A stretch of 64,000 nucleotides of DNA from Heterodontus francisci. Its lineage: Eukaryota. Positions 2,434-43,200 of the stretch are shown here, piece by piece; position 1 is the stretch's first letter, and every line of letters begins with the position of its first letter. The notes beneath the pieces were generated by a model that did not search any database, was not told the origin of the DNA, and saw only the letters and a list, made by a program, of their open reading frames with translations. The stretch covers positions 100,247,141 to 100,311,140 of the forward strand of contig NC_090377.1 in the NCBI RefSeq assembly GCF_036365525.1, in the 5' to 3' direction. Position numbers and translations under genes: made by a program.

Positions 2434-3247
2434 AGGGTAATTTTAACCCCAGAAAAGGGTAGTGTTGAGACGGGTGGGAAGTTAAAATGTTAAAAATCTG
2501 AAGCAGGAGCCTAACCTTCCACTTCTGGATTGGTATGAGGGGGGCAGGTGATTAATCCACTCTCAGGAGGTGGGTCGGCCACTGAAACCTTTTAAAGAGG
2601 CTGCGTCACTCCATTTTAACAGTGATTCTATTTTTAACCACAGTCGCCCAGGCCTCAGGAAACCCAGCAGGTAAAAGGAAGCAAGAAGGGCCAGATACAT
2701 CAGGTAAATGTTGTTACAGCACTTCCTTTGGGCCAGGAAGATCTGGAGTGTTTCCTTCAGGGCCAACAAGCTAACCTGTAAAACCATCCCACAACCATCT
2801 CCATGATCTCCCCCCGAACTCCCATGATCATCGACTTCAGCCTGCAATCACTGATCTCCCCCGTTTGTGACCAATTCGTCTCCCCCAATCTCTTGTCGCT
2901 CCTTCCTATCTGTCTCTAAACTCCCTACCTCTACTCCTGATCTCTCTGCCAACACCCCCACCTGCAACCATCCAACCCTCCAAATCTCAGTGTATTCCCC
3001 CCTCCCCTCACTACCCAACTCTTCCCCACCCTTTCACGATCTCGACCCCAAGAAGCACAGAACCTTCCTGATCCTGGTTTGTGGCCTTTTCTAAAGCATT
3101 CCCTACCCAACAGGGAGCCAAGCCTGTCAATCACGCTGCTTCCAGGCAGGGAACCTGTTAAAAAAACACACAGACACACACCCCATGGTATCAAAACTCC
3201 AGTGTTTGGCCAACCAGAATTCCTCCCCCCACTTTGAAATCCCACCC
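2434..3247. mobile_element. Putative non-autonomous DNA transposon (MITE-like)
   Basis: Starts AGGGTAATTTTAA and ends TTGAAATCCCACCC (degenerate inverted termini). It is a non-coding, GC-richer island in AT-rich DNA. Confidence 0.4.
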
Positions 3248-5288
3248 TCTCCAGTAAATAAGAGGGCCTTGCACTTTGTTCACTGTCAGTGTTCGGAGTG
3301 AGATTTTTGCTGAAAAAGAACAAGACAGATCGCAAAACTAATTTTTAGGAGAAAGGTTGATTTAAAATAGGTACTTTTTAAAAACTATATTCATGACTTT
3401 CACTACAATTGAATGAAACCTAATAGGTCTCTGTTTATATTTTTCATTTCTGCTCATAACCAAAATAGCAGCTCAGCTTTGCTATACCATTTTGCAGCAC
3501 TTGTCAGGAAGAATGTATTATTTATATTTTTGATTTTATCAATAATATTCCTTCCCTGGACCAGGACTGTGATATTGCCAACTGACAGAGAGAGAGTTTT
3601 GCCAAATAATAATGTTCTTCCCTAGACTGAAATATACCCTGGAGTGGTGGAACTCAGTGCAAATAATCTTCGACTGGTCTTGTCTCATTATGTTAAATAC
3701 ACTCTGTTCCTATCACATGCAGCATCAAAGCTGTACTCAGTAGTCTAGGGTTACTGACTCCAAAGGAATATTTATTGATGTAACTGAAGGTCTAGAATCA
3801 AGTGATAAATTTCAAATGAGAAAGCTCCTACACAGTTTTCTTTTAAATTAAAAAATCTAATAAAAATACAAGATGTAATGGGCTCTCAGAATTTTGTGTA
3901 ATAAATGAGTTTATCTAAGCAATTCTATTGTATTGCTGTCTTACAACACACAGCAAGATAATGCAATATTGCTATGTTTATATTGTACACCAGCTGCAAT
4001 ATACATTTTGTGTTGATGCGATGATGCATCGATAATGCTAAATATGCAGTAAAACACAGGAGTAATGTTTGTGGATTGTGAATTCTGACAAGCAGTGTGA
4101 AAACTGCTTTGTCTTCACATGGCTGCAGTCTAACTCCAGTCATTGTAAATTAAACTGTTTTAAACCTTTTCCTCTGCTGATCCAGGCTCTGAGAAAGCAT
4201 ATTACCACAATCATGTCAACATACAATAAAAAACAGACTGGAAAAGACCAACTGACCCATTGAGTATGTCCTAATCATCTGCGTTGCAACTAGGCAACAT
4301 GACCCCCAACACTCTTTGCCCACCAGCAGCCATTTCCGAGGTGGGCTTGCCAGGGTCCGCAGAAATGGTGAGTGGCAAGCACGACCAAACAAGTAACGTG
4401 GCTTCTGATCACAGTGGCGTGCTTTCTTTCATACAATATCGTGCACAACATGACATACTGTGAATGGGTGGCTTCTAAAGAACCTAAGGGTGAGGTAAAC
4501 ATTCGCCATCTCATTGTCGTGCCACTGGGAATTCTACTGCCACAGATGTCATTAGGAAGAATACCATAAACATTTGCCAACGTGAGATTTTTCGATGTCT
4601 CTTTTTAGATGATTGAGTGCAGGTGTGTGCAGAAGGTTCCAGAGCCTGTTTCCAGCAAGAGTTACAGATGCTTGTCCAAGGCCTGACTCAAAACTTGTGG
4701 GTGTAATTGAGCGGGAATCCAATGGAACTGAGTACTGCTGGATTTTTATTCTTTTTCTGTCTCATTACTACCCAAACCTGGATTAGGAGTAAGACAAAAA
4801 TCATCTCCAGTTTTCCTTTAAATCCAGTAAAAGCAAGGATTCCACATAAAGTTGAATTGTGCAGGTAAATATATAGCTAGAACCTGTTTAATCAAAAATC
4901 AAGAAACAACTATCCAAGCCTTCGTGCATCTATGTGTAAACCACTTCCTTTCTTGATGCTATGAATTACATGCTCCTTCATTTTTTATTGCTGATTAACA
5001 TTCCTGAATATGTTTTCCTTTTCTCTGTGACCTTTAATGGGCTTTTGATGTTGAACCTATTTGAGGAACTGTCTGTCGCTGCTGTCAGTATGTCATATTC
5101 AACACAAGATCTAACTGTTCTGGGAATGATGCTCTTGTATTTAAACCATTTCAGAAAAAAAATATTGTCAAAAGAAAAATGTAATCCACAGGAATATTGC
5201 CTCTACGCACCCCGCCCCCACCCCCCAATACCCGACGCATCAGAACACAATAAAAATCTTCTAGGTCATGCATGGAAAATATTACTTA

Positions 5289-19890: not shown

Positions 19891-20469
19891 CTGTTTTATA
19901 TGTCAGTATAAGACCTACTACATGCAATTTAGGGTACAGTGTGACAGGCCATAGTTAATATTTCTACTTGTGAGCTGATCTTAACCCACTTGTGGCTCCT
20001 CCAGTTGTGGATGAGCTAGTTTGCCTTATTCGAGGTGCTAGTTACTCTATATCATGGATTTCTGACAAGTTGTGACATGTCCTGATGAGTGAAGACAGAA
20101 TCATTAAGGAGGTAAGTATTTGAGGTGCCACAGTATAATAGTCTGTGGTTCATGGTGCATTCTCCTGGCATCCGATCACCCTGTTAGAATGTCCTTCAAG
20201 GCTAGAAACGGGGACAGGAGTGGCAGTGGAGGTGCGGGGGGCCAAAACATTGCTGTGGACGCGCTCGCCTGGAAACCTGACGTGACGTCGGTTCTGGATT
20301 TTGCCAGCGGCGAATGAACAGCAAGTTAGAATACATTTACATTGAATTGAAGCCAATTTTGTCACACCTTCTCCCCAGCTATTTAATGATGACACCACTG
20401 CCACAGGAAGGCAGCCATGGTGAGCAGTGGAGAGGGGAGGAAGGGAGAGCAGAGGCCATTGTTGGGCTG

Positions 20470-21035
20470 TGGTGCTGTGATCTCAGCAAGGGTGGGTGCA
20501 GTCTCAGGTGCTGGGATCTCTGTAAGGGTGGGCACAGTCTTGGGTGCTGTGATCTCAGCAAGGGTGGGCACAGCCCCAGGTGCTGGGATCTCGATAAGGG
20601 TGGGCACAGTTTTGGGTGCTGTGATCTCAGCAAGGGTGGGTGCAGTCTCAGGTGCTGGGATCTTTGTAAGGGTGGGCACAGTCTCGGGTGCTGTGATCTC
20701 AGCAAGGGTGGGCACAGTTTCGGGCGCTGGGATCTCTGTAAGGGTGGGCACAGTCTCAGGTGCTGGGATCTCGATAAGGGTGGGCACAGTTTCGTGTGCT
20801 GTGATCTCAGCAAGGGTGGGTGCAGTCTCAGGTGCTGGGATCTTTGTAAGGGTGGGCACAGTCTCGGGTGCTGTGATCTCAGCAAGGCTGGGCACAGTCT
20901 CAGGCGCTGGGATCTCTGTAAGAGTGGGCATAGTCACAGGTGCTGGGATCTCCATCAGGGTGGGCACAGTCTCGTGTGCTGTGATCTCAGCAAGGATGGA
21001 CGCAGTCTCGGGTGCTGGGATCTTTGCAAGGGTGC
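20470..21035. repeat. 36-bp minisatellite, ~16 units, with 180-bp higher-order period
   Basis: Unit GGTGCTG(T/G)GATCTC(AGC/TGT/GAT)AAGGGTGGGCACAGTCTC(A/G). The 60-mers starting at 20641 and 20821 are identical. Confidence 0.95.
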
Positions 21036-21309
21036 AGCAAGGCACTCATGCATCCTCAGGAGTAAGTAGTAACAGGAAGGTCCTAAGGCAAGATCATGTC
21101 TCCCACGACAGCACGCAGGAGGTGCAGAGAATAGCTGGCCCGGGTCTCATACACCCAGTCTTTGTGGACCCCCTTGCCATGCAGCAGCGGCTCAGCGGGA
21201 GGGAGGGCCAAGATCTGGCCAGCCCCGCCAGTAAAGCTCTAATAGAGTGGCAGCAGCAGCAGCCACGCCAAGAAGGGCCTATCCTCAGCAGAGAGTGGAC
21301 TTGTCTGAA

Positions 21310-21724
21310 CTAGCTGCAAATGTCCAGCAGTGTCAGCGAGGACTACGGCTCTCCAGGGAGGCCATTATTGACTTATGCGCCACGCTGCAGGACAACCTAT
21401 GACTCATGTCCGTGACCCTGAAGATCACTGTGGCACTCAACTTCCACGCATCTGGCTTTTTCCAGGGATCCACTGGGGACATGTTTGGGGTCTCCCAGGC
21501 AGCTGCCCATTGCTGCATCAAGGAGTGACCAATGCCCCACTCGATAGGGCTGGCAACTATTGTGTTACCAGACCAACCCTGGCAGTCAGGCGGAGAGGGT
21601 CATCGGCTTGGGAGCTATTGCTGGATTCCCCCAGGTGCAAGGTGTCATTGACTGCATGCATATGGCCATCAAGGCTCACACGGAGTAGCCTACTGCCTTC
21701 ATCAACAGGAAAGGCTTCCATTCG
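21310..21724 (+). pseudogene. Harbinger (HARBI1-like) DDE transposase, N-terminal half
   Basis: CQRGLRLSREA, LKITVALNFHASGFFQGSTGDMFGVSQAAAHCCI, AGFPQVQGVIDCMHMAIKA, FINRKGFHS. Confidence 0.9.
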
Positions 21725-21841
21725 GATATGGGGATAGTGTGGGAATATGGCGCTGAGGTAGACAATCAGCCAAGATCTAGCATGGCGGAGAAGGCTTGAA
21801 GGGCTGAATGGCCTACTCTTGCCCTTATGTTCCTATGTTCT
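21725..21841 (+). mobile_element. CR1 3' UTR fragment
   Basis: GGATATGGGG...GAAGGGCTGAATGGCCTACTCTTGCCCTTATGTTCCTATGTTC. Confidence 0.8.
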
Positions 21842-22649
21842 GTGCTGCTGACACCAGAGGCTCGACATCAGCCTGGGACTCAGCATGGGCCAGACCTCCC
21901 ACAGTCCTCTGACTGTCTGTGGCCTCAGCTGTCTCAGCCTCAGCCAGCTGCCTGGGTGCTTTTGTGGTGTCGTCATCAGCTTGTGACCCTGAATCTAAGC
22001 CTGAGCACATTCCCATTGATATGAAAATATCTGTGCGGGTGGAGGATGCAGGGGAATGATGTGACGGTGCATCCTCCGACTGTTACTCCTCCTCCTCAGA
22101 GGTTGATGGCAGTGCCCCTGCTCCAGTGGCTGAGCTTGGCTCCGAAGTGCCATATCCTGCAGGAGAGAATGCAAACATTTGTGGATTAGGTTGTTCAGAT
22201 CGCCTCATGCCAACCAAGTGTGATGTGGATCTCTGGAAGTGTGGTGGAGGAGACATGAGCACAATAGGCTGAATTTTGTTATGAAGATGAGGGTCCTGGT
22301 GGCAGGCTGGAAGGTTGGCTCCACTTTGTAATTACACTGCCTGCCAAACCTTTAAAAGATGAGCTCCCATCTCCAAGAGCTGCCAGCCAGTTGGAAGGGC
22401 TGGCAGCTCTGCAGTATCGGCAGCACCATGGGAGCAAACCCCAGGAGAGGTGAGTGGGGTCGGGGTCACTGAGCCCATTCAGGCAGGGCCCAATGATGAG
22501 GAGGAGTGTGGGGTCAGTGAGGGTGGGGGACATCATCCTGGAGGGGGTGCAGGGTGGTGATTGCTGCCGAGGGGGTCCTCAGGGAGCCCTGGATTGCCCC
22601 AAAGGAGGGAGACCCCCCTCCCGTGACCAAGCTAGAAGGCCGCCAGGTT

Positions 22650-23416
22650 CCAACAAAGAATGCAGTTATGTTTTACAGACCAAGTAATTACAGAACCAGG
22701 AAAACAAGCTGTAAAAATAATGATAGCAATTGGAAATGAGGGATTTACACAGAATCAATACCTCTGGATTATCTGAACAGGACAAGAAAGATCCCACAAA
22801 GATATGGAAAGTGCTGGAAGGTCAACTCCGATTATGAGTGAATTTCAGAATTCTCCACCTGGAATTGATGTCCTGTAGGCAACAGCCACAGGAATCAATA
22901 GACCAGTTTGTCAGTAGATGCCATAGTAAGGGCAATGAATGTGGCTTCTCAGAAACTCAGCTGTCAGAGCGACTAATGGAGTTGGTGATTGTTTCAACAC
23001 CCATTGAAGCATTTCAGAAGGACCTCTTGGGGAAAATGAAAGGTCACAGCATCGATGCACTGATGGAAGATGGCAGGAAACATGAAGCCATTGTAGCTGG
23101 ACAACAGCACCTACAAGCACTAGGTGCAGCCAACAGTATCGGCACCATAACCAGGTTTAAAAAGGCAAGCAAGCTGTGTGGTAAATGTGGTAGGTCCCAC
23201 ACATGGCAAAATAGCCCTGCATTTCGAGACCTATGGAAGCGTGCAGTGCAAAAGGACACTGGACCTGCTTATGCGGGAATTCTGGCTCCGAAGACACAGC
23301 CAGAAATAATGGTCAGTTGCAAACAAACAGACAATAGGGCAACAGCAGCAAGGAAAGTGCCAGACACAGGTGTAAACGCAAGCCGATACACGAAATCCAC
23401 GGCAAAACAGACCTGA
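22650..23416 (+). pseudogene. Gypsy gag (capsid plus degenerate zinc knuckle)
   Basis: QQRMQLCFTD..IMIAIGNEG..DPTKIWKVLE, RQQPQESIDQFVSRC..ECGF (retrotransposon gag motif), CGKCGRSH knuckle. Confidence 0.85.
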
Positions 23417-23499
23417 GGCAAGACTCAAGAGAGAAGTAATTCTCAGTGAGAAGACAACTAAGCATTCCACATTGTGAACCTGACACATCATGTTGATGA

Positions 23500-23850
23500 A
23501 GTCAAACAACTGGATGCTTCAGCCACTTTCAGCATCATGTGCCCAAAGAAAGCTGGCAAACATACACTCAGGGTCAAGATTGACACTAGCTCTAGTGCAA
23601 ATATCCTCCCAGTCTGAATCCTCAAAGATATGTACTGGAGTCATTGGAAATCAATGATGCAACTGACAACTGCCAAACTATCTGCATACAATGGGCCTCC
23701 CATCCCTTGCAGTGGCACATTAACAATGCAATGCAGATATTGCAAGTTGACATGGAAACCACAAACGTTCTACCTAGTAGACACGAGCAGACCAGCAGTG
23801 GCAGAGCTACCAGTGTGTAAGGACCTCAATATCATACCATCCACAAGAGC
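23500..23850 (+). pseudogene. Retropepsin-type aspartic protease
   Basis: Frame +2 reads LRVKIDTSSSANILPV*..KLSAYNGPPIPCSG..FYLVD..LPVCKDLNII. The DT(G>S) active-site motif is present, with one in-frame stop. Confidence 0.85.
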
Positions 23851-23909
23851 AGTGCCAAGGGGAAATCTCCAAGGACCAGAACCCACTTGCAGACTCTGAC
23901 CAGCATCAA

Positions 23910-24317
23910 ATGGTGCAACAGCACAACTATGCCGTTCCTTCTCTTCTGCTCTCTAGAGAACTGCCAGCACCATAACAAGCCAGAACAGGTATCTCCATGA
24001 GACCAAGTACTCTTCCCCCAACATACCCTCAGCTTGAGCCCAAACCTTCAGACGTGGAGGATGAGGAGAGGCGAAGGACATGCAATGTCCTGAAGAGGCA
24101 GAGGAGGAATGAGTTGAAGCGTTGTCTGTTGGTTCTTCGGGAAGAGATGCCGGAACTTTCCAAGAATGGCAAGGCCTCCATTTTGAGACAAGCAACAGAG
24201 TATGTAAACAGGCTGAAGGCAGAACAACAGAAACTGAATGCAGAGAGGGAGAAAATTCAGAAAGAACAGCAACAGATGAGATGTGAATTCCCCGAGCAAG
24301 AGTTGTCAAACCACTGA
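23910..24317 (+). pseudogene. myc: Captured Myc-family C-terminus (QHNYA motif, NLS-like segment, bHLH-leucine zipper), N-Myc/c-Myc-like
   Basis: Frame +3 reads MVQQHNYAVPSLLLSRELPAP*QAR..PKPSDVEDEERRRTCNVLKRQRRNELKRCLLVLREEMPELSKNGKASILRQATEYVNRLKAEQQKLNAEREKIQKEQQQM. Compare N-Myc [55 protein letters not shown], and c-Myc RRTHNVLERQRRNELKR. One stop at 23973-23975. Confidence 0.93.
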
Positions 24318-24437
24318 GACGATTTATGGACTTCTGAGCCTCTATACCTGCAAACCCCACAATCTTTATCCATGTGTAAATAATTTTGATGTTATCCAAT
24401 GTTATGTGTTTTGCTTTTAGCATACGAGACCTCTTTT

Positions 24438-24450
24438 GAAAGAAGGGGAA
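24438..24450 (+). other. Polypurine tract
   Basis: GAAAGAAGGGGAA immediately before TGTTG. Confidence 0.85.
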
Positions 24451-24708
24451 TGTTGTGTGATTGCCTTTAAGAGTGATGTCCCTTTAAGATCTTAGTATGC
24501 TAATGAGCCAAGTGCCAGTACTCAGTCATGTGGCCACAAGCTTGCATCACTCTGTAACTGTAACACCAAGAGGCAGCTTCTGTAAATAGTTAGCTCTGTG
24601 CTGTATGTAATAGTTAGCTGTTACTAAACCTGTTTGAGATCTTCAACAACTGAACTCCATGCATATCATTTATGTTGCATCAGACAATATAAAAAGCTTC
24701 TCATTACA
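24451..24708 (+). mobile_element. 3' LTR (~258 bp) of the Gypsy-myc element
   Basis: TGTTGTG...CATTACA directly after the PPT, followed by GGTT. Confidence 0.8.
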
Positions 24709-25424
24709 GGTTTTATCTGGTGGTGTTTCCCAGTGGTGGTGGGACCCTCTGCCTTCCATTAAATTGAAGCGGAGGTGGGAAGAGGCTCTTAAATGGCCAT
24801 TAATTGGCCACTTTAGGGCCTCAATTGGCCTGGGTCGGGAACACTGTCCTTGGCCTTCCCTGCCCTGGAATAAATTGGAAGGCGTCAGGAAGGCGACGTG
24901 CACTCCACTCCCTGACTTGCGACACAATTTTCTGGGGCCCACCCACTTCTGTTCTTGTCTGGAGGGAACCATTAAATTCAGTCCAGTGTCTCCTTACTCT
25001 CTTGTGCTCAGCTGCCCTAGGCACCCACTAACTCCAGGACCTCCTCCTCTGCCGGTATCAGAGGATGCACATCAGGGGCCCCCATCGCCAATCCTTGTTT
25101 TCTTCCTGCTGTTATGGGCCTATTTCTCCTGCAAGCGGAAGGAGAGACACAGTTAGACGTTGCACGAAGAGCAAGTGGACACTAGTGGCAGCCACTCGTC
25201 CCCTGATGGGGTCTCCCAAATGGCTCCTCCTCATGTCCGCTCTCAGGGGATCTATTGGGGTTGAAAGAAGGTGACCTGTCGCTGGCATGCAGCCATGTGT
25301 CTGCCAGGATGTGCTAATGCCTCACTGCCATGCCACCACCTTTGTGGCCACTCCCTCCCCATGTAGCACTCCCTCCCGTGTAGCCACATACAAGTCCCAA
25401 AGAGGAGATAGGTATGGATGACTC

Positions 25425-25630
25425 ATGCTATTACTCTTGCGGCACTGGACCCTGTTCCCGCAGATGACCCCGCAGCTGCTGACCTCCTCTGCAATCTCCA
25501 TCGAGGCTTGCTTCGTCAAGCGAGAGGATCTCTTCTTGCCATCCCTTGGAAAGTGGACTTCCCACCTTTCCCTTCAGCCTGGTGGAGAATCTCGAGGGAA
25601 ACATTGCTAAGCCATGGGGCCACCTGGTGC
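25425..25630 (-). pseudogene. Harbinger-associated Myb/SANT-like DNA-binding protein, first exon (a probable later exon lies at ~21850-22160)
   Basis: VAPWLSNVSLEILHQA..EVHFPRDGKKRSSRLTKQASMEIAEEVSS..NRVQCRK, read across one frameshift. Confidence 0.8.
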
Positions 25631-25719: not shown

Positions 25720-26165
25720 AGTGGGGAAGTCCAGGAGTTGCAGCAGTAGAGGGGGGGGTCCCGCCGCAACAACAGCACTAGAGGGGAGTCCAGCAGCAAC
25801 AGCAACAGTACAGAGGCGGCCAGGAGTAACAACAGTGCTAGAGTCAGGTTCGGAGTAACACCACCAGTAGAGCGGGTCCGGGAGTAACAGCAGCAGCAGA
25901 GGGGGGTCCAGGAGTAACAGCAGCAGTAGAGGGGGTATCCAAGAGTAAAATCAGCAGTAGAGGGGTGTCCAAGAGTAAAAGCAGCAGCAGAGGGGGGTCT
26001 AAGAGTAACAGCAGTGGCAGAGGGAAGTCCAAGAGTAACAGCAGCAGCAGAGGGGTTCCAGGAGTAACAGCAGCAGCAGAGGGGGGTCCAGGAGTAACAG
26101 CAGCAGCAGAGGGGGGTCCAGGAGTAACAGCAGCAGCAGAAGGGGGTCGAGGAGGCAAGCAGCAG
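25720..26165. repeat. 30-bp minisatellite, ~14 units
   Basis: Unit CCAGGAGTAACAGCAGCAGCAGAGGGGGGT with variants. Confidence 0.9.
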
Positions 26166-26535
26166 AGAGGTCCAATAGCAGTCCAGAGTCACTGCATCAG
26201 TAAAAGGTAGCAGTACAAACAGGGCTGGCAGTGCTTTAAAGATGGCGCCAATATCTGTGTTTTCATCAGCTGATGCAGCCGTCAATGTCTCATAGCCCAC
26301 TCCCATCCTGCAATAGGATGGGCTCCGGACCTTGGTTATGTTAATTGGCTGACTGCTATGGGATCGCAATTGGTCAGCCGCGACAGGCTGTTAAAATTCA
26401 GCACATTTGTATAAATATAGTCTGAGCACCACCTTACTTCAGAATTCTACTTTATTACCACAAATGCTATTCTCCCCTGTGAATCATGAGATCACCATGT
26501 TATTCTGCAGTAATAATTTTGTAGAAACCTCTCTT

Positions 26536-27265
26536 CAGTCAGGCTAATGGGAAGATTCTTGGTAGTGTAGATGAGCAGAGAGATCTTGGTGTCCAGGTAC
26601 ATAAATCCCTGAAAGTTGCTACCCAGGTTAATAGGGCTGTTAAGAAGGCATATGGTGTGTTAGCTTTTATTAGTAGGGGGATCGAGTTTCGGAGCCACGA
26701 GGTCATGATGCAGCTGTACAAAACTCTGGTGAGGCCGCACCTTGAGTATTGCGTGCAGTTCTGGTCACCGCATTATAGGAAGGATGTGGAAGCTTTGGAA
26801 AGGGTGCAGAGGAGATTTACTAGGATGTTGCCTGGTATGGAGGGAAGGTCTTACGAGGAAAGGCTGAGGGACTTGGGGTTGTTTTCGTTGGAGAGAAGGA
26901 GGAGGAGAGGTGACTTAATAGAGACATACAAGATAATCAGAGGGTTAGATAGGGTGGATAGTGAGAGTCTTTTTCCTCGGATGATGATGGCAAACACGAG
27001 GGGACATAGCTTTAAGTTGAGGGGTGAAAGATATAGGACAGATGTCAGAGGTAGTTTCTTTACGCAGAGAGTAGTAGGGGCGTGGAACGCCCTGCCTGCA
27101 ACAGTAGTAGACTCGCCAACTTTAAGGGCATTTAAGTGGTCATTGGATAGACATATGGATGAAAATGGAATAGTGTAGGTCAGATGGTTTCACAGGTCTG
27201 CGCAACATCGAGGGCCGAAGGGCCTGTACTGCGCTGTAATGTTCTAATTCTAATTCTAATTCTAT
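26536..27265 (+). mobile_element. CR1 (HER1-like) LINE, 5'-truncated, young
   Basis: Uninterrupted ORF2 C-terminus LYKTLVRPHLEYCVQFWSPHYRKD..RGDLIETYKI..FFTQRVV. Tail (TTCTAA)n. Confidence 0.95.
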
Positions 27266-28352: not shown

Positions 28353-29601
28353 ACTGCAGTGAGTTGCCATCTGATAAAAGCAATGCAATCTTACTGGAGG
28401 ACAGATCTATCATCTAGGGGCAGTTAGACAGGGATGAAGCAACAATGGAAATTTGACATCAGGACAAGCAAGTAGTACAGATACACAGCTTAGCAAATTG
28501 TACTCTTTACTTCAGGAGTCCTGCTCCAGACACTTGGGCACAAAATCTAGGCTGACATTCCAATGCAGTACTGAGGGAGTGCTGCACTGTCAGAGGTGCC
28601 GACTTTTGGATGAAACTTTAAACCAAGTTTGCCCTCTCAGGTGGATGTAAAAGGTCTGATGTCAGTATTGAAGAAGCGCACCTCCAATTTTGTCCCTCAT
28701 TCAACATCACTGGAATAGATTATCTGGTCATTAGCACAATGTTGATGAGCTGAGGGCACAGATAGGCACATGACAGAATGACACCATTGCTATAACAAGG
28801 CTTAAACAGGGGCAAAAATGGCAGCTCAACATCCCTGGATATAGAGTTTTCAGGCAGGATAGAGAGGGGGATAAAAAGAGGGGGTGTAGCATTATTACTT
28901 AAAGAATTTATTACAACTTTGAGGAGGGATGATATGCTAAATGAATCATCAAATAAGGTCATATGGGTTGAGCTCAGAAATAAAAAAAAAGGGGCAGCCA
29001 CACTGCTAGGAGTGTACTAGAGACCACCAAATAGTGAGAGGGAGATAGAAGAACAAATATGTAGGCAAATTTCTGAGTGCAAAAACAATAGGGCAATAAT
29101 AATTGGAGATTTCAATTACCCTAGTATCAACTGGTTACAAACAGTGTGAGGGGCACAGAGGGCACAAAATTCTTGAACTGCATTCAAGAGAACTTTATAA
29201 GCCAGCATGTATCAAGCCTGATGAGTGTGGCTGCAATTCTAGATTTAGTCTTCGGAAATGAAGCTGGGCAAGTGGATGAAGTAGCCGTGGGTGACCATTT
29301 TGGAGATAGTGACCATAGTACTGTTAGATTTAGCATTATTATGGAAAAGGACAAAGATAGAACAGGAGTAAAAGTTCTAAATTGGGGGAAGGCAAATTTT
29401 ACGAAGCTGAGAGGTGATCTGGCGAAAGTGGACTGGATACAGCTACTTGAAGGAAAATCAGTGGGAGGCATTCAAAAGTAAGATTCTACGTGTACAGTGT
29501 AGACATGTCCCCACAAAGAAAAAGGGTGGTACTGCCAAATCTAGAACCCCCTGGTCATCTGGAAGCATACAGGCAGAAAACAAAAGACAGTCGCAAAAAA
29601 C

Positions 29602-30193: not shown

Positions 30194-30579
30194 CTTAATA
30201 CTTTAGAAAGCCTAGAGGAGTATAGATAGTGCAGGGGTGAAGTAAAAAAGGAAATTAGGAAAGCAAAGAGAGGACATGAAAAAATATTGGCGTGGATGCA
30301 TAATGAGTACTTTGTCTCTGACTTCACAAAGAACAGGGATAATGCAGACATTGTGGTTAAAAAGGAAGAGTGTGAAGTATTAGATACTATAAGCATAATG
30401 AGAGAAGAAGTACTGGAGGGACTGACATACTTGAAAGTGGATAAATCACCAGGGCTGGATGGCTGTATCTCAGGCTGCTAAAGGAAGCCAGGGAGAAAAT
30501 AACGGATGCTCTGAGGATCATTTTCAAATCCTCACTAGATACAGGCAAGGTACCAGAGGATTGGAGGTCTGCGAATGTT

Positions 30580-30806
30580 GCAGACACTCTTCTGAATGGG
30601 ATGTTAATGCAGCATCGTCAGCAAAGAGGAGTTCCCTGATGAGGACCTTCCGTACTTTGGTCTTAGCTCTAAGACGGACAAGGTTGAACAACCTGCCATC
30701 TGATCTTGTGTGGAGGAAAATTCCTTCTTCTGAAGACTTGAACGCATGTGAGAGCAGCAGTGCGAAGAAGATCCCAAACATTGTAGGTGCGAGAACACAG
30801 CCCTGT
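30580..30806 (-). mobile_element. RTE internal RT fragment embedded in CR1
   Basis: QGCVLAPTMFGIFF..LLFADDAALTSHSEECLQ, homologous to ~6240-6452. Confidence 0.9.
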
Positions 30807-33594
30807 GTATACAATAGAAAAGCAGGGATGTAATGCCAGAACAGTATAAAACTCTGGTTAGGCCACAGCCAGAGTATTGTGTATAGTTCTGGTCACCACA
30901 TTACAGGAAGGACATAATTGATCTGGAGAGAATGCAGAGAAGATTTTCAAGAATGTTGCCAGGGCTTGAAAATTGCAGCTATGAGGAAAAATTAGATAGG
31001 CTAGGGTCACTTAATTGAGGTGTACAAAATTATGAGGGGCCTAGATAGAATAGACAGGAAGGACCTGTTTCCCCTAGCAGAGCGGCCAATTACCAGGGGG
31101 CACAAATTTAAGGTGATTGGCAGAAGGATTAGAGGGGACATGAGGAAAAACTTTTTCACTCAGAGGGTGGTGGGTGTCTGGAATTCATGCCCAGATCGGT
31201 GGTGGAGGCAGAAACCCTCAACTCATTTAAAAGGTACCTGGATCTGCACCTGATGTCCTGTAACCTGTAAGGCTACGGCCCAGGTCCTGGAAGGTGGGAT
31301 TAGAATGAGCGGTTAGTTTTTTCATCCAGCGCAGACACGATGGGCTGAATGGCGTCTTTCTGTGCCGTAACTTTTTTATGGTTCTATGGTTGTTTGTGGG
31401 ACCTTGCTGTGTTAAAATACATATCGAAAGTACTTCATTGGCTGTAAAGCACTTTGCTACCTCCTGAGGTTGTGAAAAGCACTTTATAAATGCAGTTTCT
31501 TTTCTTTCCAATGATCCGAAGCAGGATGGATCCTCTGGGTCTATCACAGTTCCTCAGAGATAATTTCATAATGAGTTTTGTTTAAGAGGGGTTTGCACCA
31601 CTATTAGTCATCATTTTAGTAGCATCAACATTAATCAAATTAAAATTAAGGTCACTGGCTGCCTGCAGCTATATTGTAATCTGCAGGAAGCTGCTCAACG
31701 TATTGTTTGAACTGTCCTAATTCTGTCAGTCCTTCCTCAATAAAATAATGTTCCACACCCAGGTCATTATAATAAGTAAAACATACAGACATTTACATGT
31801 TTTCACTGCAGTAGTTGCTTGTCATTTATTTCTGTTCTTGGAAAATGTTGGGAAAAGAGTACAGTCTTGGTGAAGATGTAGAATGGAGTGTGAAATTTCC
31901 ACTGATCAAGACTAAACATTTACTGGATTTAAGGGGACTTACCACCAGTTTGAGGGAGAAAGAAAGTTTAGAAGAGATAAATATAATTTTGACTCATGAA
32001 ATATCATGATGGCATTTCATAACAATGTCGTATGTAGGAGAAGAAACATATTTTTCACTATTCTATCGAGCTAACAGTGCTCCTTTTAAGACTAAACAGT
32101 GTTCAGTTCTCATGCTGTGTTCCCAGTTAGAAATGAGCATTGGTTGATACATCATATACAATGGGCAATATCCTTCATTATATTTCATTCTATTTCTTCA
32201 CTCTTGATAAATATAGTCTGCTGGATCCTTGGCATTGGATTTCATAGGATTCAGACAACATTGTAAAGTAAATGAACAAAGATCATGAGCCACTTTTACT
32301 CCCAAGAATAAATGGCCAAGAATGAGGGATTGCCTGGTACGAAGGTCAGACACGAGTGAGATTTCAGTGAAAGAGGTGCTTATGGATAATACACAAAAGA
32401 AAGATCTTGAAGTAGAGATGGGAGGCGGGTGAGGTGCTCAAATAAGAAAACGAGATAGAGGAATAGGGGGAAAATTGAAGTGAGATTTTGATATAAACAT
32501 CACACCATCACCAAGGTTGGGAGACATCGTGCAACATGTGAGGTAGCTTTGTGAGGGAAAAGGTGTTGTATGCGAAGAGCTAAACATCAGTCCAGCTCAG
32601 CTTGTCAGAATATTCATCCAACAGAGAGATCACGGATGAAAATGCATTTTTTATTTTGCAGGGTGATGTGGAAGGGGGGTGGGGGGGGGTGGTGGCAAAG
32701 AATTATTGGGCAGCAAGTTAGTGGAAAGTTGACTGGGAGTGATGAAGAGAGTGAGGGAATGAAAGGTAAGGAATTGGAAAAGGGTGAAGGTAGAAAGAGA
32801 TGGGCAGAGCAGCAAGGATGATCCATCCTTAGGTACACCGAGTGGAGCAGGACTATAATAATGCAGTCACATCAGCTCAACTGGAGTCAAGCTGCAGGCG
32901 AAAGGGACAGTTCAGCCAGGAGAAGCCTGGAGAGTAATATTGGTGTTGAGCATGAGATGTCATCAAACTTTGGACACACTTGCTGAAGAATCATGCCATA
33001 GAATTTTGTCGAGGTGGCCACAGAAATAGGCCTCGCGATGCTGTAGGATTCTAGGGCTTGAATATGACCGTTAGAATGCAGAAAGATCCATATCTAAATA
33101 ACATTTCATCACATATTGCAGTTGAGGAACAGTATCACAATCGCTGCACACAGAGAAGTACATTAAATAAATGAAACATTCAGGACTCATTCCAAGCTCA
33201 ATAAAAACAGAATTTTACATTCAATTAACTAACAACATCTTGCCCCGCTTCTAAACTATATAGTGTAAAGATCATTTGCCACCTGTTAAATGAGGTTTGC
33301 AGACAGCTTCTGCTTCACTTAAGAGTAAGTCCCTGATGTGATGAAGTTTGATCTTTATACAGATATATTGCTCTGTTGCTCTGAATTACTCATTTATATC
33401 AGTTTTATGTTCAGTCACAGTGCAACTCAGTGAAGTGAGGTGAGCATGTACCATTTGTCTCATACTCTGTCACAGTAATCGTCCCTTATGGTTATAGTTG
33501 CTTTGTTTTAAAAAGATGTGAATAAGCTGGTGGGCCACTTTCAGCAGTCATTGCCTTGATTTTATACTGACCAGTGCAGGTATGAATTGGCTTT

Positions 33595-34207: not shown

Positions 34208-34469
34208 TTGGCCCATCTTTGTGGGTAGGAAAATGGTCCATGCCCAGAAAATAAGCTAGACTTTGAAACAATGCACTCTTTTTGTGTTGCTGATGGAGTT
34301 TTCAAATCAGAACTGCAAGGCAAACAAGGCAGGCTAAGCACCGAGAGTCAACATGCTTGCATTTCAAATACTTCTCTGTGATCAGGGGGTTTGTTTACAG
34401 ATTACTAAGGTGTCTCACCAGGTTTTACTCTTGTACTATATGCAATGATGATGCCATTTGTGCATAATG

Positions 34470-34610
34470 AGACAACAATCACTGACAAACATTGCCAATC
34501 ACAGACTGAGGTCACCAATCAGAGAAACACGTCATCAATTACAGACACACATCACCAATCACAGACACACGTCATCAATTACAGAGCCACGACACCAATC
34601 ACAGACACAC
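34470..34610. repeat. Detached left edge of the 20-bp satellite
   Basis: CACCAATCACAGACACAC-type units of the same family as 37250-51745. Confidence 0.85.
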
Positions 34611-37250
34611 ATAGGAACATAGAAGCAGGAGTAGGCCATTCAGCCCATCGAGCCTGCTCCACCATTCAATACGATCATGGCTGATCTTCCACTTCAATAC
34701 CTTTTTCTCACACTATCCTCATATCCCCTTATGTCATTTGTATTTAGAAATCTGTCAATCGCTGCTTTAAACATACTCAATGACTGAGCTTCCACAGCCC
34801 TCTGGGGTAGAGAATTCCAAAGATTCACAACCCTCTAAGTAAAGAAATTTCTCCTCATCTCTATACTAAGTGGTTTCTCCCTTACTTTGAAATTGTGTCC
34901 CCTGGTTCTAGACTCCCCAACCAGGGGAAACATCTTACCTGCATCTACCCTGTCTATCTATTTAATTATTTTGTAGGTTTCAATGAGATCACCTCTCATT
35001 CTTCGAAATGCTAGAGAATACAGGCCCAGTTTCCCCAATCTTTCTTCATAGGACAGTCCCGCCATTCCAGAAACAAGTCTGGTGAATCTTCGTTACACTC
35101 CCACTACGGCAATAATATCCATCCTAAGGTAAGGGGACCAAAACTGCACACAGTACTCCAGGTACGGTCTAACCAAGGTTCTGTACAATTGAAGGACAGG
35201 AAGGACAGGAAGCTAGGAAAAGCTGGAGGGGTAGCTCTGTTAATTAATGATGGTATTAGTGCAATAGAGAGGGATAACCTAAGTTCAGGAGACCAGGATG
35301 TAGAAGCAGTTTGGGTAGAGATGAAAAATCATAAAGGCAAGAAGTCACTTGTGGGAGTGGTGTATAGACCACCTAACATTAACCACACTGTAGGATGGGG
35401 TATAAAGGAAGAAATAATGGCAGCTTGTCAAAAAGGTACAGTGATAATTATGGGGGATTTTAACCTACATATGGATTGAAAAAATCAGATGGGCAGAGGT
35501 AGCCTAGATGAGGAGTACATAGAATGTTTTCGGGATAAATTTCTTGGAACAATACATTCCGGAGCCAACCAGAGAGCAGACTATACTAGACCTGGTATTG
35601 TGCAACGAGATAAAATTAATTAATAACCTCATAGTTAAGGTGCCCTTAGGTAGCAGCGATCATAATATGATTGAATTTTACATTCAGTTTGAGGGAGAAG
35701 AGTGGGTCCAAGACTAGTATTTTAAACTTAAACAGGGTCAGTTATGAATGCATGAAAGCAAAGCTAGTTAAAGTGAACTGGCAAATCAGGTTAAGGGTTA
35801 GGTCAATTAAGATGCAGTGGCTGACATTTAAGGGGATATTTCAGAATACACAGAACAGATACATTTCAACGAGAAAGAAAAATTCCAAGGGTGGGACCTG
35901 CCATCCATGGATAATTAAAACAGTTAAAGATAGTATTGCTAAAGGAATAGAGTATAAAAGTAGGGAAGTGTTGTTGCAACTGTACAAGGCACCTGGAGCA
36001 TTGCGTACAGTTTTGGTCCGTTACTTGAGGAGGTATGTAGTTGCTTTGGAGGCAGTTCAGAGAAGGTTCACTAGGTTGATTCCAGAGATGAGGGGTTTGT
36101 CTTATGAAGAGAGATTGAGCAGTTTAGGCCTTTACTCTCTGGAGTTTAGAAGAATGAGAGGAGATCTAATTGAGGTATATAAGATGATTAAGGGGATTGA
36201 CAAAGTAGACATAGAGAGGATGTTTCCTCTGGTGGGGCAATCTAGAACAAGAGGTCATAGTTTGAGGATAAGGGGTAGCAGATTTAAAAGAGAGATGAGG
36301 AGAAATTACTTCTCTCAAAGGGTCGTGAGTCTGTAGAATTCACTACCCCAGAGTGCAGCGGATGCCAGGACATTGAGTAAATTTAAGGAGGAGATAGACA
36401 GATTTTTAATTAGTAAAGGGTTGAAGGGTTATGGAGAACGGGCAGGAAAGTGGAGTTGAGGTCGAGATGAGATCAGCCATGATCGTATTGACGGGGCTGA
36501 ATTGCCTACTCCTGCTCCTAGTTCTTATGTTCTTGTGTTCTAAAAGCCTATAATTGCGCAAAGGTGGGAGACAGGTCAGAAGATTGGGCAGCATATAAAA
36601 AACAGCAGAGAATGACTAAAAGGTTGATAAGGAAGGTAAAATTAGAGTACAAGAGAAAGCTAGCGAGAAATATAAAGACAGATAGTAAGAGTTTCTAAAG
36701 ATATTTAAAAAGAAAAGAGTTAACAAAGTGACCGTTTGTCCTATAAAAGGTGAGTCTGGGGAATTAGTAATGGGTAATATGGAGATATTTTGCATCGGTC
36801 TTCGCTACTGAGGATACAAGTAACATCCCAGTATTAGTTGCAAGTCAGGAAATGGAAGGGAGGGAGGAACTCAAGAAAATTACAATCACCAGGGAAGTGA
36901 TATTGAACAAATTGTTGAAGCTGCGGGCTGACACGTCCCCAGTTCCTGATGGACATCATCCTAGGATGGTAAAAGAAGTGGCTAGTGAGATTGTTGATGC
37001 ATTGGTTTTAATTTTCCAAAATTTCCTAGATTTGGGGAAGGTTATATTAGATTGGAAACTAGCGAATGTAACTCCTTTATTCAAAAAAGGGAGACAGAAA
37101 GCAGGAAACTACAGGCCAATTAGTTTAACATCTGTCTTCAGGAAAATGTTAGAAGCTATTATTAAAGTTGTTATAGCAGGCCTTTTCGAAAAATTCAAGG
37201 TAATCAGGCAGAGTCAACATGTTTTTGTGAAAGGGAAATCATGTTTAACA
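34611..37250. mobile_element. CR1 LINE with inverted 5' part (3' end on - at 34611-35190; endonuclease-RT on + at 35191-37250)
   Basis: Minus strand carries LYRTLVRPYLEYC through the tail. Plus strand carries KDRKLGKAGGVAL, VYRPP, MGDFN, SSDH, NYRPISLTS and QHVFVKGKSCLT. Confidence 0.85.
35936..36540 (+). mobile_element. Second CR1 3' end nested inside the CR1
   Basis: IAKGIEYKSREVLLQLYKA..MRGDLIEVYKM..YFSQRVV plus tail. The host CR1 resumes at 36541. Confidence 0.85.
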
Positions 37251-40200
37251 ATATCACATATCATAACAATATCATATCACAGACACACATCACCAATCAC
37301 AAATGCCCATCACCAATCAGAGACACACATCATTAATCACAGACACACATCACCAATCAAAGACACACATCAACAATCGCAGACACATATCACCAATCAC
37401 AGACAAATCACCAATTTCAAACACACGTCCTCAATCCCAGACACACACCATCAATTACAGGCAGACATCATCGATCACAGAGACACATCACCAATCACAG
37501 ACACACATCATCAATTACACCCACTCATCATTAATCACAGACACGTCAGCAATTACAGACACACGTCATCAATCATAGACACACGACCTGAATCACAGAA
37601 ACACGTCATCAATCACAGTCACACATCAGCAATCACAGACATACATCACAAAGCAGTCACACATCGCCAGTCACAGTCTCACATCACAAATCACAGACAC
37701 ACCTCATCAATTACAGAAACACGTCATCAACCACTGTTACACATCGACGATCACAGGCATACATCACAAACCAGTCACACGTCAGCAATGACAGACACAC
37801 GTCATCAATCACAGACACATGTCACAATTACAGACACACATCATCAATTCCACACACACGTCCTCAATCACGGAAACATGTCATCAATCACAGTCACACA
37901 TGTCACCAATCACAGTCACACATCATTAATGACAGACACACATCATCAATCCCAGTTACACATCACCTATCACAGACATAGATAGAAATAGTCACACATC
38001 ACCAATAACAGGTACATGTCACCAATCACTCTAACACATCACCAATCACAGACACACAGCACAAATTACAGATGCACGTCATCAATCATGGACACACGTC
38101 AATAATCACAGATGCAGAACACCAATCACAGTCACACATCATCGATGACTGACACACATCACCAATCAGACACATATCACCAATCACCGACACACTTAAC
38201 CAATCACAGACACACATCACCAATTACAGACACACATCATCAATTCCACACACACGTCCTCAATCACGGAAACATGTCATCAATCACAGTCACACATGTC
38301 ACCAATCACAGTCACACATCATCAATGACAGACACACATCATCAATCCCAGTCACACATCACCTATCACAGACATAGATAGAAATAGTCACACATCACCA
38401 ATAACAGGTACACGTCACCAATCACTCTAACACATCGCCAATCACAGACACACAGCACAAATCAAAGATGCACGTAATCAATCATAGACACATGTCACCA
38501 ATCACAGACGCAGAACACCAATCACAGTCACACATCATCAATGACTGACACATCATCAATCAGACACGTGTCACCAATCACAGATGCACATCATCAATCA
38601 CAGACACACATCAACAATCACAGACAAACATCATAAATTACAGACACACATCATCAGTTAGAGACTCACGTCATAAATCACAGACACACACAACAATCAC
38701 AGACACACATCATAAATTACAGACAAACATCATCAATTAAAGGCTCAGGTCATAAATCACAGACACACATCGCCAATCACAGACACTCATCAATTACAGA
38801 CTCATGTCATAAATCACAGACACATCATCAATCAGAGACAAACACCATCAATTACAGACTCACATAATCAATCACAGACACACACCACCAATCACAGTCG
38901 CACCTCATCAATCACAAAGACACATCACCAATCACAGACACACATCACCAATCACAGACACACATCATCAATTACAGACTCACGTCATAAATCACAGACA
39001 CACATCATCAATCAGAGATACACATCATCAATCAGCGACACACATCATCAATTCCAGACACACAACATCAATCAAACACAGACACACATTATCAATCACA
39101 GACACAGATCAATTACAGACGCATGTCATAAATCACTGACAAACATCATCAATCAGAGACAAACACCATCAATTCCAGACACACATCATAAATCCCACAC
39201 ACACGTCCTCAATCACGGAAACATGTCATCAATCACAGTCACACATTGCCAATCACAGACACACATCATCAATGACAGACACACATCATCAATCCCAGTC
39301 ACACATCACCTATCACAGACAGAGATAGAAATAGTCACACATCACCAATAACAGGTACACGTCACCAATCACTCTAACACATCGCCAATCACAGACACAC
39401 AGCACAAATTACAGATACACGTCATCAATCATAGACACACGTCAATAATCACAGACGCAGAACACCAATCACAGTCACACATCATCGATGACTGACACAC
39501 ATCACCAATCAGACACATGTCACCAATCACCGACACATTTAACCGATCACAGACCCACATCAATCACAGACACACATCATCAGTCAGAGACACAACAATT
39601 ATAGATACACATCATTAATCACAGACACATGTCACCAATCACAGACACACATCATCAATTACAGACACACGTCCTCAATCACGGAAACATGTCATCAATC
39701 ACAGTCACACATTGCCAATCACAGACACACATCACAAATCACAGACACATGTCACCAATCACAGTCACACATCATCAATGACAGACACACATCATCAATC
39801 CCAGTCACACATCACCTATCACAGACATACATAGAAATAGTCACACATCACCAATAACAGGTGCACGTCACCAATCACTCTAACACATCGCCAATCACAG
39901 ACACACAGCACAAATCAAAGATGCACGTAATCAATCATGGACACATGTCACCAATCACAGACACAGAACACCAATCACAGTCACACATCATCAGTGACTG
40001 ACACATCACCAATCAGACACATGTCACCAATCACCGACACATTTAACCAATCACAGATGCACATCATCAATCACAGACAAACATCATCAATTGCAGACAC
40101 ATCATCAATGATAGACACACATCATCAATGATAGACACATCATCTATCACAGACATACATCGTTAAATACAGACACATATCAATCATAGACACACATCAT

Positions 40201-43200
40201 CAATTACATACATACACAGCAATCGCAGACACACATCGTTAATTACATACACAGCAATCGCAGACACACATCAATCGCAGACTCACATCATTAATTACAG
40301 ACACACATCATCAATCACTGACACATCATCAATCGCAGAGGCACATCATCAATCGCAGATGCACATCATCAATCACAGATACACATCATCAATCACAGAC
40401 GCATCATTAATTACAGACACACATCATTAATCACAGGCACACATCAACAAGCACAGACACATGTCATCAATCACAGAACCACATCACCAATCACAGACTC
40501 ACATCACCAATCACAGACTCACATCACCAATCACAGCCACACATCATCAGTCACAGTCAGACATTATCAATCACAAACACACACCATCAATTACAGACAC
40601 ACATAATCAATTACAGATATACAACATCAATCAGAGACACATAATCTCAATCACAGACACACATCACCAAAGACACACATCACCAATCACACATGCACAT
40701 TATTAATCACTGACAAACATCATCAATTACAGGCACACATCATCAATGACAGACATACATCACCATTCACAGACACACATCATTAATTACAGACTCATCA
40801 TCAATCACAGACACACATCATCAATTACTGATACATATCATCAATTACAGACACACATCATCTTGACAGACACAGGTCATCATTCACAGACGCACATCAT
40901 TAATTTCAGACACAGATCATCAATTACAGACGCACATAATCAATGACAGACACACGTCATCAATCACAGATGCATCATCAATCACAGACAAACTTCATCA
41001 ATTTCAGACACACATCATCACTCATAGACACACATCATCAATGTCAGACACTCGTCATCAATAGCGGACAGACATCATCAATCAGAGACAAACGTCATCA
41101 ATTTCAGACACACATCATCAATCAGAGACACACATCATCAATCAGAGACACACATCATCAATCACAGACACACGTCATCAATCACAGACACACATCATCA
41201 ATCACAGACACACATCATCAATCACAGACAAACTTCATCAATCGCAGACACACATCATCCATCAAAGACACACGTCATCAATCACAGACAAACTTCATCA
41301 ATCACAGACACACATCATTAATCACAGAGACATGTCATCAATTACAGACATACATCATTAATCACAGACACACATTGCCAATTACAGATGCACATCATTA
41401 ATTACAGACACACATCAGCACTCACAGACACACATCATCAATTTCAGACACACATCATCAATCACAGACAAACTTAATCAATCACAGACACACATCATTA
41501 ATCACAGAGACACGTCATCAATTACAGACACACGTCATCAATTACAGACACACATCATCAATTACAGACACACATCGTCAATGATAGACACACATCATTC
41601 AGAGACACGCATCATTAATTACAGACAAACATCATCAATCACAGACAGACAGACATCATCAATGACAGACACACATCAACATTTACAGATCCACATCATC
41701 AAACACTGACACACATCATTAATCACAGACGCATCATTAATTACAGACACACATCATTAATCACAGGCACAGGTCATCAATCACAAACACACATCATGAA
41801 TAACAGACACACATGATTAATTGCAGAGACACCTCGTTAATTACAGACAAACACATTCAATCACAGACAAACATCATTAATCACAGACACAGATCATCAA
41901 TCACAGACACACATAATTAATTACAGACACACATCATTAATCACAGGCACACATCATCAATCACAAACATCATTAACCACAGCCACAGATCATCAATTTC
42001 AGACACACATCATCAATCACAGACACACATCATTAATCACAGCGACACGTCATCAATCGCAGACACACGTCATCAATCACAGACACACATCATCAATTAC
42101 AGACACCCATCATCAATCACATACAAACATCATCAATTTCAGACACACATCATCAATCACAGACACACATCATTAATCACAGAGAAACGTCATCAATCAC
42201 AGACACACATCATCAATCACATACAAACGTCATCAATTTCAGACACACATCATCACTCAAAGACACACATCATCAATCACAGGCACACATCATTAATTAC
42301 AGACACACATCGTCAATCACAGGCACACATCATTAATTAAAGACACACATCATCAATCACAGACAGACGTCATCAATTTCAGTCCCACATCATCATCCAC
42401 AGGCACACATCATTAATCACAGAGACATGTCATCAATCGCAGACACACATCATCCATCAAAGACACACATCATCAATCACAGGCACACATCATTAATCAC
42501 AGAGACACGTCATCAATCGCAGTCACACGTCATCCATCAAAGACACACATCATCAATCAGAGACAAACATCATTAATTACAGACACCACATCACCAATCA
42601 CAGGCACATATCATCAATCACACACACATCACCAATCACAGACGCACATCATCAATCACAGACACACATCACCAATCACAGACACACATTACCAATCACA
42701 GACAAACATCAGCAATCACAGATACTCATCAGCAATCAGAGACACACATCATTTACTTCAGACACACCTCATTAATTACACAGACACCATCAATCACAGA
42801 AACACATCGTCAATCGCAGATGCACGTCATCAATCACAGATACACATCATCAATCACAGCCACACATCACCAATCACAGTCAGACATTATCAATTACTGA
42901 CACACACCATCAATTACAGACACACATAATCAATTACAGACATACATCATCAATCAGAGAGACACAACCTCAATCACAGTCACACATCACCAATCACAGA
43001 CAGACATCAGTAATTACAGACACACATCATCAATTACATACAAACATCATCAATTTCAGACACACATCATCACTCAAAGACACACATCATCAATCACAGA
43101 CATACATCATCAATCACAGACACATATCATTAATCACAGAGACACGTCATCAATCGTAGACGCATATCATCCATCAAAGACACACATCATCAATCAGAGA

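Follow-up and report, generated by a model that had tools for sequence, protein, structure and literature searches.

The window, a 64,000-nt stretch of the genome of the horn shark (Heterodontus francisci), was found to contain at 22,647-24,708 a copy, dead and truncated at its 5' end, of a non-autonomous LTR element of ~3.15 kb with the order gag-protease-myc. The Myc part of this element family was captured from the host gene mych and fused in frame into a Ty3/Gypsy-type parent element, and the family was probably amplified with the parent as helper. A probability of about 0.9 is assigned to capture, in-frame fusion and helper dependence.

The element family, its parent and the copy in the window

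A query with window positions 23,900-24,400 against the 6.0-Gb genome resulted in 3,237 candidates, and a bHLH-ZIP protein query in 3,875; both figures are unscored first-look totals and not copy numbers. All of the 40 candidates scored for the DNA query matched (84-86% to the window), as did all of the 150 scored for the protein query. The sequence at 24,451-24,708 was also present upstream of gag in 17 of 20 copies fetched with 10 kb. This LTR is 258 nt long with TG...CA ends and is accompanied by a TGGTGGCAGC-type primer site and a polypurine tract. Among 10 copies with both ends, the 5-bp target duplication was exact in 3 and had one mismatch in 4. Full window-type copies are without RT and integrase. 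Relatives of the element's gag-protease are single-ORF gag-PR-RT-RNase H-integrase proteins in Ty3/Gypsy order; RT precedes integrase in all 8 full-length relatives scanned, and the alignment of one of them with parent copies of this genome is colinear. By its structure, the element is a non-autonomous Ty3/Gypsy-type LTR retrotransposon derivative. A segmental duplication and an ordinary processed pseudogene were rejected on the basis of the LTRs, the primer site, the 5-bp duplications, the absence of poly(A) and the presence of parent pol on both sides.

An RT query of the genome gave 25,905 first-look candidates. Stretches of 75-90% DNA identity to a myc-bearing copy were present in 29 of the 30 best RT loci, most of them ending at the capture point. 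In all 16 refetched parent copies pol was present, myc was absent and the LTR was the same as in the myc element. In the parent, about 100-200 nt lie between the end of integrase and the 3' LTR, which would leave no room for env. A query with integrase-tail DNA for parents had fetched 29 loci, 28 with a long myc piece and one with only its last 50 nt; the latter was dropped, and parents were obtained by the RT query instead. The parent family, too, is large, and its LTR age matches that of the myc-bearing groups. A single ORF, two knuckles and a tRNA-Leu primer are features of Mag-like elements, to which the parent may belong; a literature search on these features gave no match.

The copy in the window is composed as follows:

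22647..23420, plus strand: gag, 5'-truncated, linked by P0002 to the full gag-pol proteins P0006-P0047
23530..23846, plus strand: aspartic protease and short spacer
23847..24289, plus strand: captured mych exon-3 sequence (Myc box IV region, NLS, bHLH-ZIP), host codons ~196-353
24081..24107, plus strand: basic region, with triad His to Cys at 24,081, Glu to Lys at 24,093, and Arg retained at 24,105
24290..24437, plus strand: remnant of the integrase C-terminal tail, out of frame after the 169-nt subfamily deletion, then the 3' untranslated part
24438..24450, plus strand: polypurine tract, by sequence
24451..24708, plus strand: 3' LTR, 258 nt, TG...CA, present at both ends of fuller copies and on RT-bearing parent copies

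The copy is cut off at 22,647, and the 5' LTR, the primer site and about 830 nt are missing. Its gag part has stops and frameshifts and, starting at about 23,183, two Cys/His motifs resembling zinc knuckles. In the protease part, the catalytic Asp codon at 23,582 reads DTS (DTG in 26 of 33 window-type copies), a stop is present at 23,615, and one base is missing near 23,835. Pfam searches with the gag and protease fragments gave no match. A Myc-type bHLH-ZIP was recognised at 23,976-24,317 (Pfam HLH, 1.2e-7), the best PDB matches being Myc (1e-15). The myc-derived part at 23,847-24,289 corresponds to 473 nt of host sequence.

The first-pass annotation of this DNA had described a decayed capture of about 135 C-terminal myc codons without MBI and MBII, placed behind a linker. 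Its observations were partly confirmed, and the family proved larger than it had seen. The absence of MBI and MBII holds, as do the frames (protease +2, LQTLTSIK +1 and bHLH +3), the TAA at 23,973 and the loss of the KVV region, where 9 nt are gone after 24,178. LQTLTSIK does read in +1, but is not a linker: it is part of myc exon 3 (83% identity to the host gene in a gapped alignment), so that the myc part is longer than the ~135 codons stated. The indels were also found again: the myc part has lost 16, 4, 1, 1 and 9 nt in five deletions, each present in just 1-3 of 68 copies, and the protease-myc junction is one base shorter than in all 39 other scored junction matches. Judged against the other copies, these deletions and the one-base shortfall are decay, and the earlier view that the window copy is dead is supported. 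The stop at 24,315 occurs in 13 of 49 window-type copies and 24 of 49 stop 12 codons later, and 24,317, the last position of the earlier range, is therefore not where the frame usually ends.

A decayed Harbinger/PIF-like DNA transposon was observed around the element (21,330-21,740 on the plus strand, 25,325-25,573 on the minus strand). Its transposase-like fragment matched Pfam Plant_tran at 7e-4, below the cut-off, and a further stretch (no Pfam match) is assumed to be Myb/SANT-like. Window positions 22,449-22,603 and 24,707-24,894 adjoin each other in locus L038; the LTR element therefore sits inside the older Harbinger-like repeat. Minisatellites of 36 nt and 30 nt with long stop-free frames are present in the Harbinger-like region (20,363-21,106 and 25,724-26,184). 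A C/A-rich array of about 14.5 kb, with a 20-nt unit and a higher-order spacing near 2.1 kb, occupies 37,200-51,700, and a short relative of it is located at 34,430-34,650. Fragments at 26,525-27,200, 28,800-29,500 and 30,200-31,250 resemble CR1-type LINE ORF2; a Pfam search with 26,525-27,175 gave no match.

Donor gene and capture

A Myc_N search of the host genome gave three host-type loci among the scored rows (C5, C3 and C16), with no L-myc locus among them. Element copies showed 83-91% DNA identity to exon 3 of the C16 gene. The c-myc-like locus was rejected as donor with a DNA identity of only 68%. Host C16 exon 3 is 100% identical to a horn shark protein named 'myelocytomatosis oncogene homolog' by NCBI. 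In the tree, the mych group was split from c-, N- and L-myc with 99% support (one L-myc row only), and the C16 product and two element-derived models fell among mych of sharks, rays, coelacanth and ray-finned fish. By DNA identity and tree position the donor is mych; L-myc was ruled out by the NCBI protein name of the C16 product together with the tree. Host mych is located at C16:100.014-100.019 Mb (L059, L112) and has a degenerate N-terminus with an MBI-like EMLPTPPQSP and an MBII-like QDCMWNN. To our knowledge, mych is absent from mammals. A literature search on mych gave no paper on the gene.

In the longer subfamilies, the last ~190 nt of exon 2 are joined to exon 3 exactly at the splice junction (16/16 copies shown), and hence mRNA was the template; the 1.7-kb mych intron is absent from long copies. 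The sequence common to parent and mych is GGATGCA at the 5' switch point (7 nt, as shown in 16 parent copies) and CAAATT at the 3' switch point (6 nt, as shown in 10). The frames agree at both points, with pol L-R-E-D-A against mych L-D-A-V-P at the 5' end and mych R-K-F against integrase S-K-F at the 3' end. By this exchange about 2.2 kb of pol, from the start of RT to the integrase core, was replaced by host codons 116-353. The captured piece starts after the MBII-like QDCMW, so the transactivation region was never taken, and the earlier claim of a captured myc without transactivation boxes is upheld. The junctions give one ancestral frame, gag-protease-Myc(116-353)-integrase tail.

The junctions would have been made by a double template switch of RT in a particle with co-packaged mych mRNA. 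The derivative was probably copied in trans by RT and integrase of the parent, would have kept exchanging its gag-protease half with the helper lineage, and would have been translated through the Myc part. It reached thousands of copies and was shortened by successive deletions to the window type.

The capture mechanism itself is already known, and the junctions agree with the double template switch proposed for LTR-mediated retrocopies. In the LTR-mediated retrocopies of Tan et al. (2016, PMC5131818, in the available part of the text), a host mRNA piece replaces the internal ORF, introns are lost, both LTRs are kept, microhomology of ~6 nt occurs at both switch points, and further rounds of non-autonomous retroposition follow. 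The shark element likewise carries a spliced-mRNA cargo in place of part of an internal ORF, with microhomology at both switch points, and thus belongs among them. It differs in its in-frame fusion at both ends, its several deletion subfamilies and its myc-family cargo, and in having about 3,200-3,900 candidates, whereas the retrocopies described there are present in single or few copies.

Deletion subfamilies, residue losses and age

The comparison covered 25 parent copies and 96 copies with myc, of which 49 were window-type, 33 long-tail, 7 intermediate or short-tail and 7 of other kinds; the compared copies are top matches of four different queries, not a random sample, and the intermediate subfamily is known from 7 sequences and from the lengths of matches. 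Since a tree of 50 copies turned out star-like, with weakly supported internal nodes, the copies were grouped by structure. The protease-to-myc spacing was about 558 nt in long copies (553-562 in 7/16), 429 nt in the intermediate form (417 nt and in frame in L104, with 30 of 39 matches 12 nt longer), and 180 nt in the window type (21 of 40 copies; 179 in the window copy). Following a deletion of roughly 230 nt, 22 of 33 long-tail copies have the integrase tail in the myc frame at 180 nt; the length left by the tail deletion is 132 nt in 23 of 33. Also in frame is a tail deletion of 96 nt, which was measured in a single copy. In the window type, a 169-nt deletion right after the zipper puts the tail out of frame (46 of 47 measured). 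Thus, six of seven fixed junctions are in frame, namely the two capture ends, the tail deletion, the intermediate 429 nt, the window-type 180 nt and the 96-nt tail deletion; the chance of this is about 0.007, rising to 0.018 if the one-copy case is left out. The sole out-of-frame fixed junction lies after the zipper. The intermediate deletion joins two IES stretches, and the in-frame junctions may partly follow from microhomology positions.

Gag-protease has one low-stop frame in all three groups, and no myc frameshift goes beyond homopolymer noise or 2-3 copies, with none shared in a set of 68 copies. The 5' deletions after capture kept the frame, which makes a predicted Gag-PR-Myc product well supported; the proposal of the first-pass annotation that a Gag-Pro-Myc frame runs across the family agrees with these junction sequences. 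The myc part is free of stops and frameshifts in only 4 of 96 copies, and the family is therefore dead.

The His/Glu/Arg triad of the basic region reads the E-box (PMC10437117, available part). Triad Glu was kept in 10/32 long-tail, 0/7 intermediate and 0/49 window-type copies, triad His in 24/30, 2/7 and 3/49, and the NLS Lys in 25/32, 5/7 and 0/47 copies of the same groups. The triad Arg was kept in 47 of 49 window-type copies, and His and Glu together in 7 of 33 long-tail copies. The Glu codon is not in a CpG; Glu was kept in 12 of 45 copies picked without reference to the window, and Glu-less long-tail copies are marked by only two weakly linked sites. Cys at 24,081 and Lys at 24,093 had been noted before and are present, but not as defects of a single copy: window-specific decay was rejected as an explanation for the loss of Glu, His and the NLS Lys, since these losses are family-wide. 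With these Glu counts, neither an intact HNVLERQRR nor the E-box-binding, transcription-regulating mini-Myc once proposed for the ancestral element could be retained, and an intact basic region in the window-type family is refuted at the level of these residues.

At the 13 checked hydrophobic core positions of the HLH-zipper, the host residue was found in 41-49 of 49 window-type copies; the last heptad Leu was kept in 0/49. The window type also lost by deletion the EEIDVV box, which we take to be MBIIIb and which the long-tail form retains. MBIIIb is linked to WDR5 (PMC7226237, available part).

Between the long-tail and the window type, 8 nonsynonymous and 2 synonymous changes were counted, as compared to 2 and 4 long-tail-specific ones (332 and 136 sites). 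Six of the 8 amino-acid changes affect the 49 codons (of 156) at which 9 mych orthologues are invariant (p=0.012) and two affect the triad (p=0.007), with p=0.053 and 0.011 if 10 changes are counted; both tests rest on 8-10 changes that were noticed after the fact. The 0-fold/4-fold ratio of net divergence was 0.29 (CI 0.18-0.53) for gag-protease between parent and window type. Between long-tail and window type it was 0.32 (0.12-0.98) for protease, 0.73 (CI 0.25-5.1) for myc and 1.75 with an unbounded interval for the HLH-ZIP alone. No purifying signal in the myc part was demonstrated by this divergence, the interval being compatible with neutrality. The first-pass annotation had regarded an out-of-frame, neutrally evolving myc as fatal to its view; the frame was found kept, and on neutrality versus constraint the ratio for myc is the one given above. 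In each of the three gag-protease segments, the myc-bearing groups fall together with the corresponding parent sub-lineages, which points to repeated recombination with the helper. Constraint on gag-protease may have acted in the helper lineage, and for this reason its ratio is no proof that myc-bearing RNA was translated.

Median K2P distances of LTR pairs were 0.11 (9 window-type), 0.10 (6 long) and 0.11 (7 parent copies); these medians indicate one period of activity. Of the lineage-specific mych changes, 7 occurred before capture, 4 after it, and 2 were ambiguous. The 7 earlier changes place the capture well after the lineage had left other sharks, and it may have taken place tens of millions of years ago. 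An absolute date was discarded: 7e-10 is a mutation rate per generation (PMC10587355, available part), and the resulting value of about 7.5e7 generations is too loose for use. In two other organisms, contigs (runs X5 and X8) span the family over 22.6-24.7 kb, with the protease-myc junction of the window type among the sequence covered; the burst therefore predates their split from the sequenced lineage. Contigs from three runs guessed to be RNA cover the family, such contigs being unable to give strand, level or full-length transcripts. In protein searches, the horn shark was the only species under whose name element-derived proteins turned up.

Readings of the Myc part

We favour, at slightly less than even odds, a Myc part that was a translated passenger and was disarmed stepwise. 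The open frame was probably kept since a stop just after the protease would hurt genomic RNA or packaging, an argument from RNA stability that comes from retroviruses. A DNA-binding Myc without transactivation domain, dosed into germ cells, would harm both host and element, and the parts acting on chromatin would have been lost in steps, with the triad Glu first, followed by the His, the NLS Lys and the deletion of the EEIDVV box. A frameshift ahead of Myc would have been the easiest remedy for a harmful product, yet none was fixed.

The HLH-zipper may instead have been selected as a decoy for Max, the textbook partner of Myc, or as an oligomerisation handle. A non-DNA-binding HLH-zipper with weakened NLS, fused to or cut from Gag-protease, would have sequestered Max as a dominant negative, which we assume to be comparable to Id, and helped the element to spread in germ cells. 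Consistent with this, the frame was retained through every deletion upstream of the zipper, the hydrophobic core is host-like, and the protease DTG persists in most window-type copies. Deletions took the flanks on both sides and none entered the bHLH-ZIP, the 169-nt 3' deletion beginning within about three codons of the myc end. However, the HLH-ZIP ratio of 1.75 with its unbounded interval gives no purifying signal, 2 changes in 63 HLH-ZIP codons do not differ clearly from 6 in 93 codons upstream, and the last heptad Leu is gone throughout the window type. Internal branches this short (net 3-5% at 4-fold sites) would leave most residues seemingly conserved in any case, and a benefit of blocking Myc is not evident. 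We consider such a decoy unlikely, and are just as sceptical of the wider proposal of a transposon-encoded anti-Myc, by which selection during the burst would have made the cargo a non-DNA-binding, Max-sequestering HLH-zipper or a structural module. Omomyc, a dominant-negative Myc bHLH-ZIP, is likewise a Myc C-terminus with HLH-zipper and without transactivation domain, but its dimers bind E-boxes (PMC7226237, in the part available). At the sequence level such binding is not expected of the window type, where Glu and His are lost, and any action would therefore be by sequestration only.

If the Myc part was a neutral stuffer, a chance filler of packageable length, then the frames and the lost residues would be coincidences of a few master copies in a short burst. 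The myc ratio of 0.73 has an interval spanning 1, a first count within the family gave 8:3 nonsynonymous to synonymous changes (omega about 1.0), and all groups have the same LTR age, which leaves little time for selection. Re-transposing LTR-mediated retrocopies are known without any cargo function (PMC5131818, as far as the available text goes). This would nevertheless require luck twice, for the six of seven in-frame junctions (p about 0.007-0.018) and for the loss of two of three base-reading residues and the NLS Lys among 8 changes, and we regard it as improbable.

A growth-promoting oncogene capture as in avian myelocytomatosis virus MC29, with a Myc part driving germ-cell proliferation and raising transmission, has very little probability. 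MC29 and related myc-transducing retroviruses are replication-defective and helper-dependent and have a short genome with a single gag-myc fusion (PMC13431497, available part); the shark element has the same architecture, with the fusion inferred from the frame. Its earliest, long-tail form still has the EEIDVV box and frequently a complete triad, His and Glu being kept together in the copies counted above. In contrast to MC29, its parent is of Ty3/Gypsy type without room for env, it is inherited through the germ line, and the donor is mych. It carries no transactivation region and, in the window type, no intact triad, and it falls outside the MC29 type of virus. Capture started at codon 116, and DNA-reading residues were lost while amplification continued, by which a growth-promoting role is already largely refuted. 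Overall, the earlier interpretation of the element is partly supported.

Crocodilian ERVs with captured KITLG and nectin3 (PMC4299795, available part) are also ancient vertebrate germ-line LTR elements that were amplified with host mRNA. These ERVs number 9 and 6 copies, with a cargo under purifying selection, whereas the shark element has thousands of candidates, a cargo fused inside pol and no demonstrated purifying signal. In the literature covered, no description was found of the myc cargo, the copy number, the in-frame placement in pol or the family-wide loss of DNA reading; Repbase/Dfam, supplements and most subscription papers were outside the scope, and a repeat-library entry may exist.

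Element copies corrupt annotation, as three NCBI horn shark models are or contain the element. P0152 ('N-myc-like') and P0160 ('myc-like') are element copies, with the element tail and Lys replacing Glu, and with the protease in front in P0160. P0001, the SLC2A10 model of 883 aa, consists of element gag, then HLH, then a sugar transporter, and is either an annotation artefact or a real exonisation of an element copy into SLC2A10.

Oncogene transduction is a textbook trait of infectious retroviruses, and the shark element shows the same event in the vertebrate germ line. It looks like a germline, non-infectious parallel to the myc-stealing cancer retroviruses, in which donor gene, parent element, both switch points and the ladder of deletion subfamilies are all legible in one genome. 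Its thousands of copies are a testable record of selection on a captured Myc when the carrier passes through healthy germ cells, and they suggest that under these conditions the frame was kept and the DNA-reading residues were lost.
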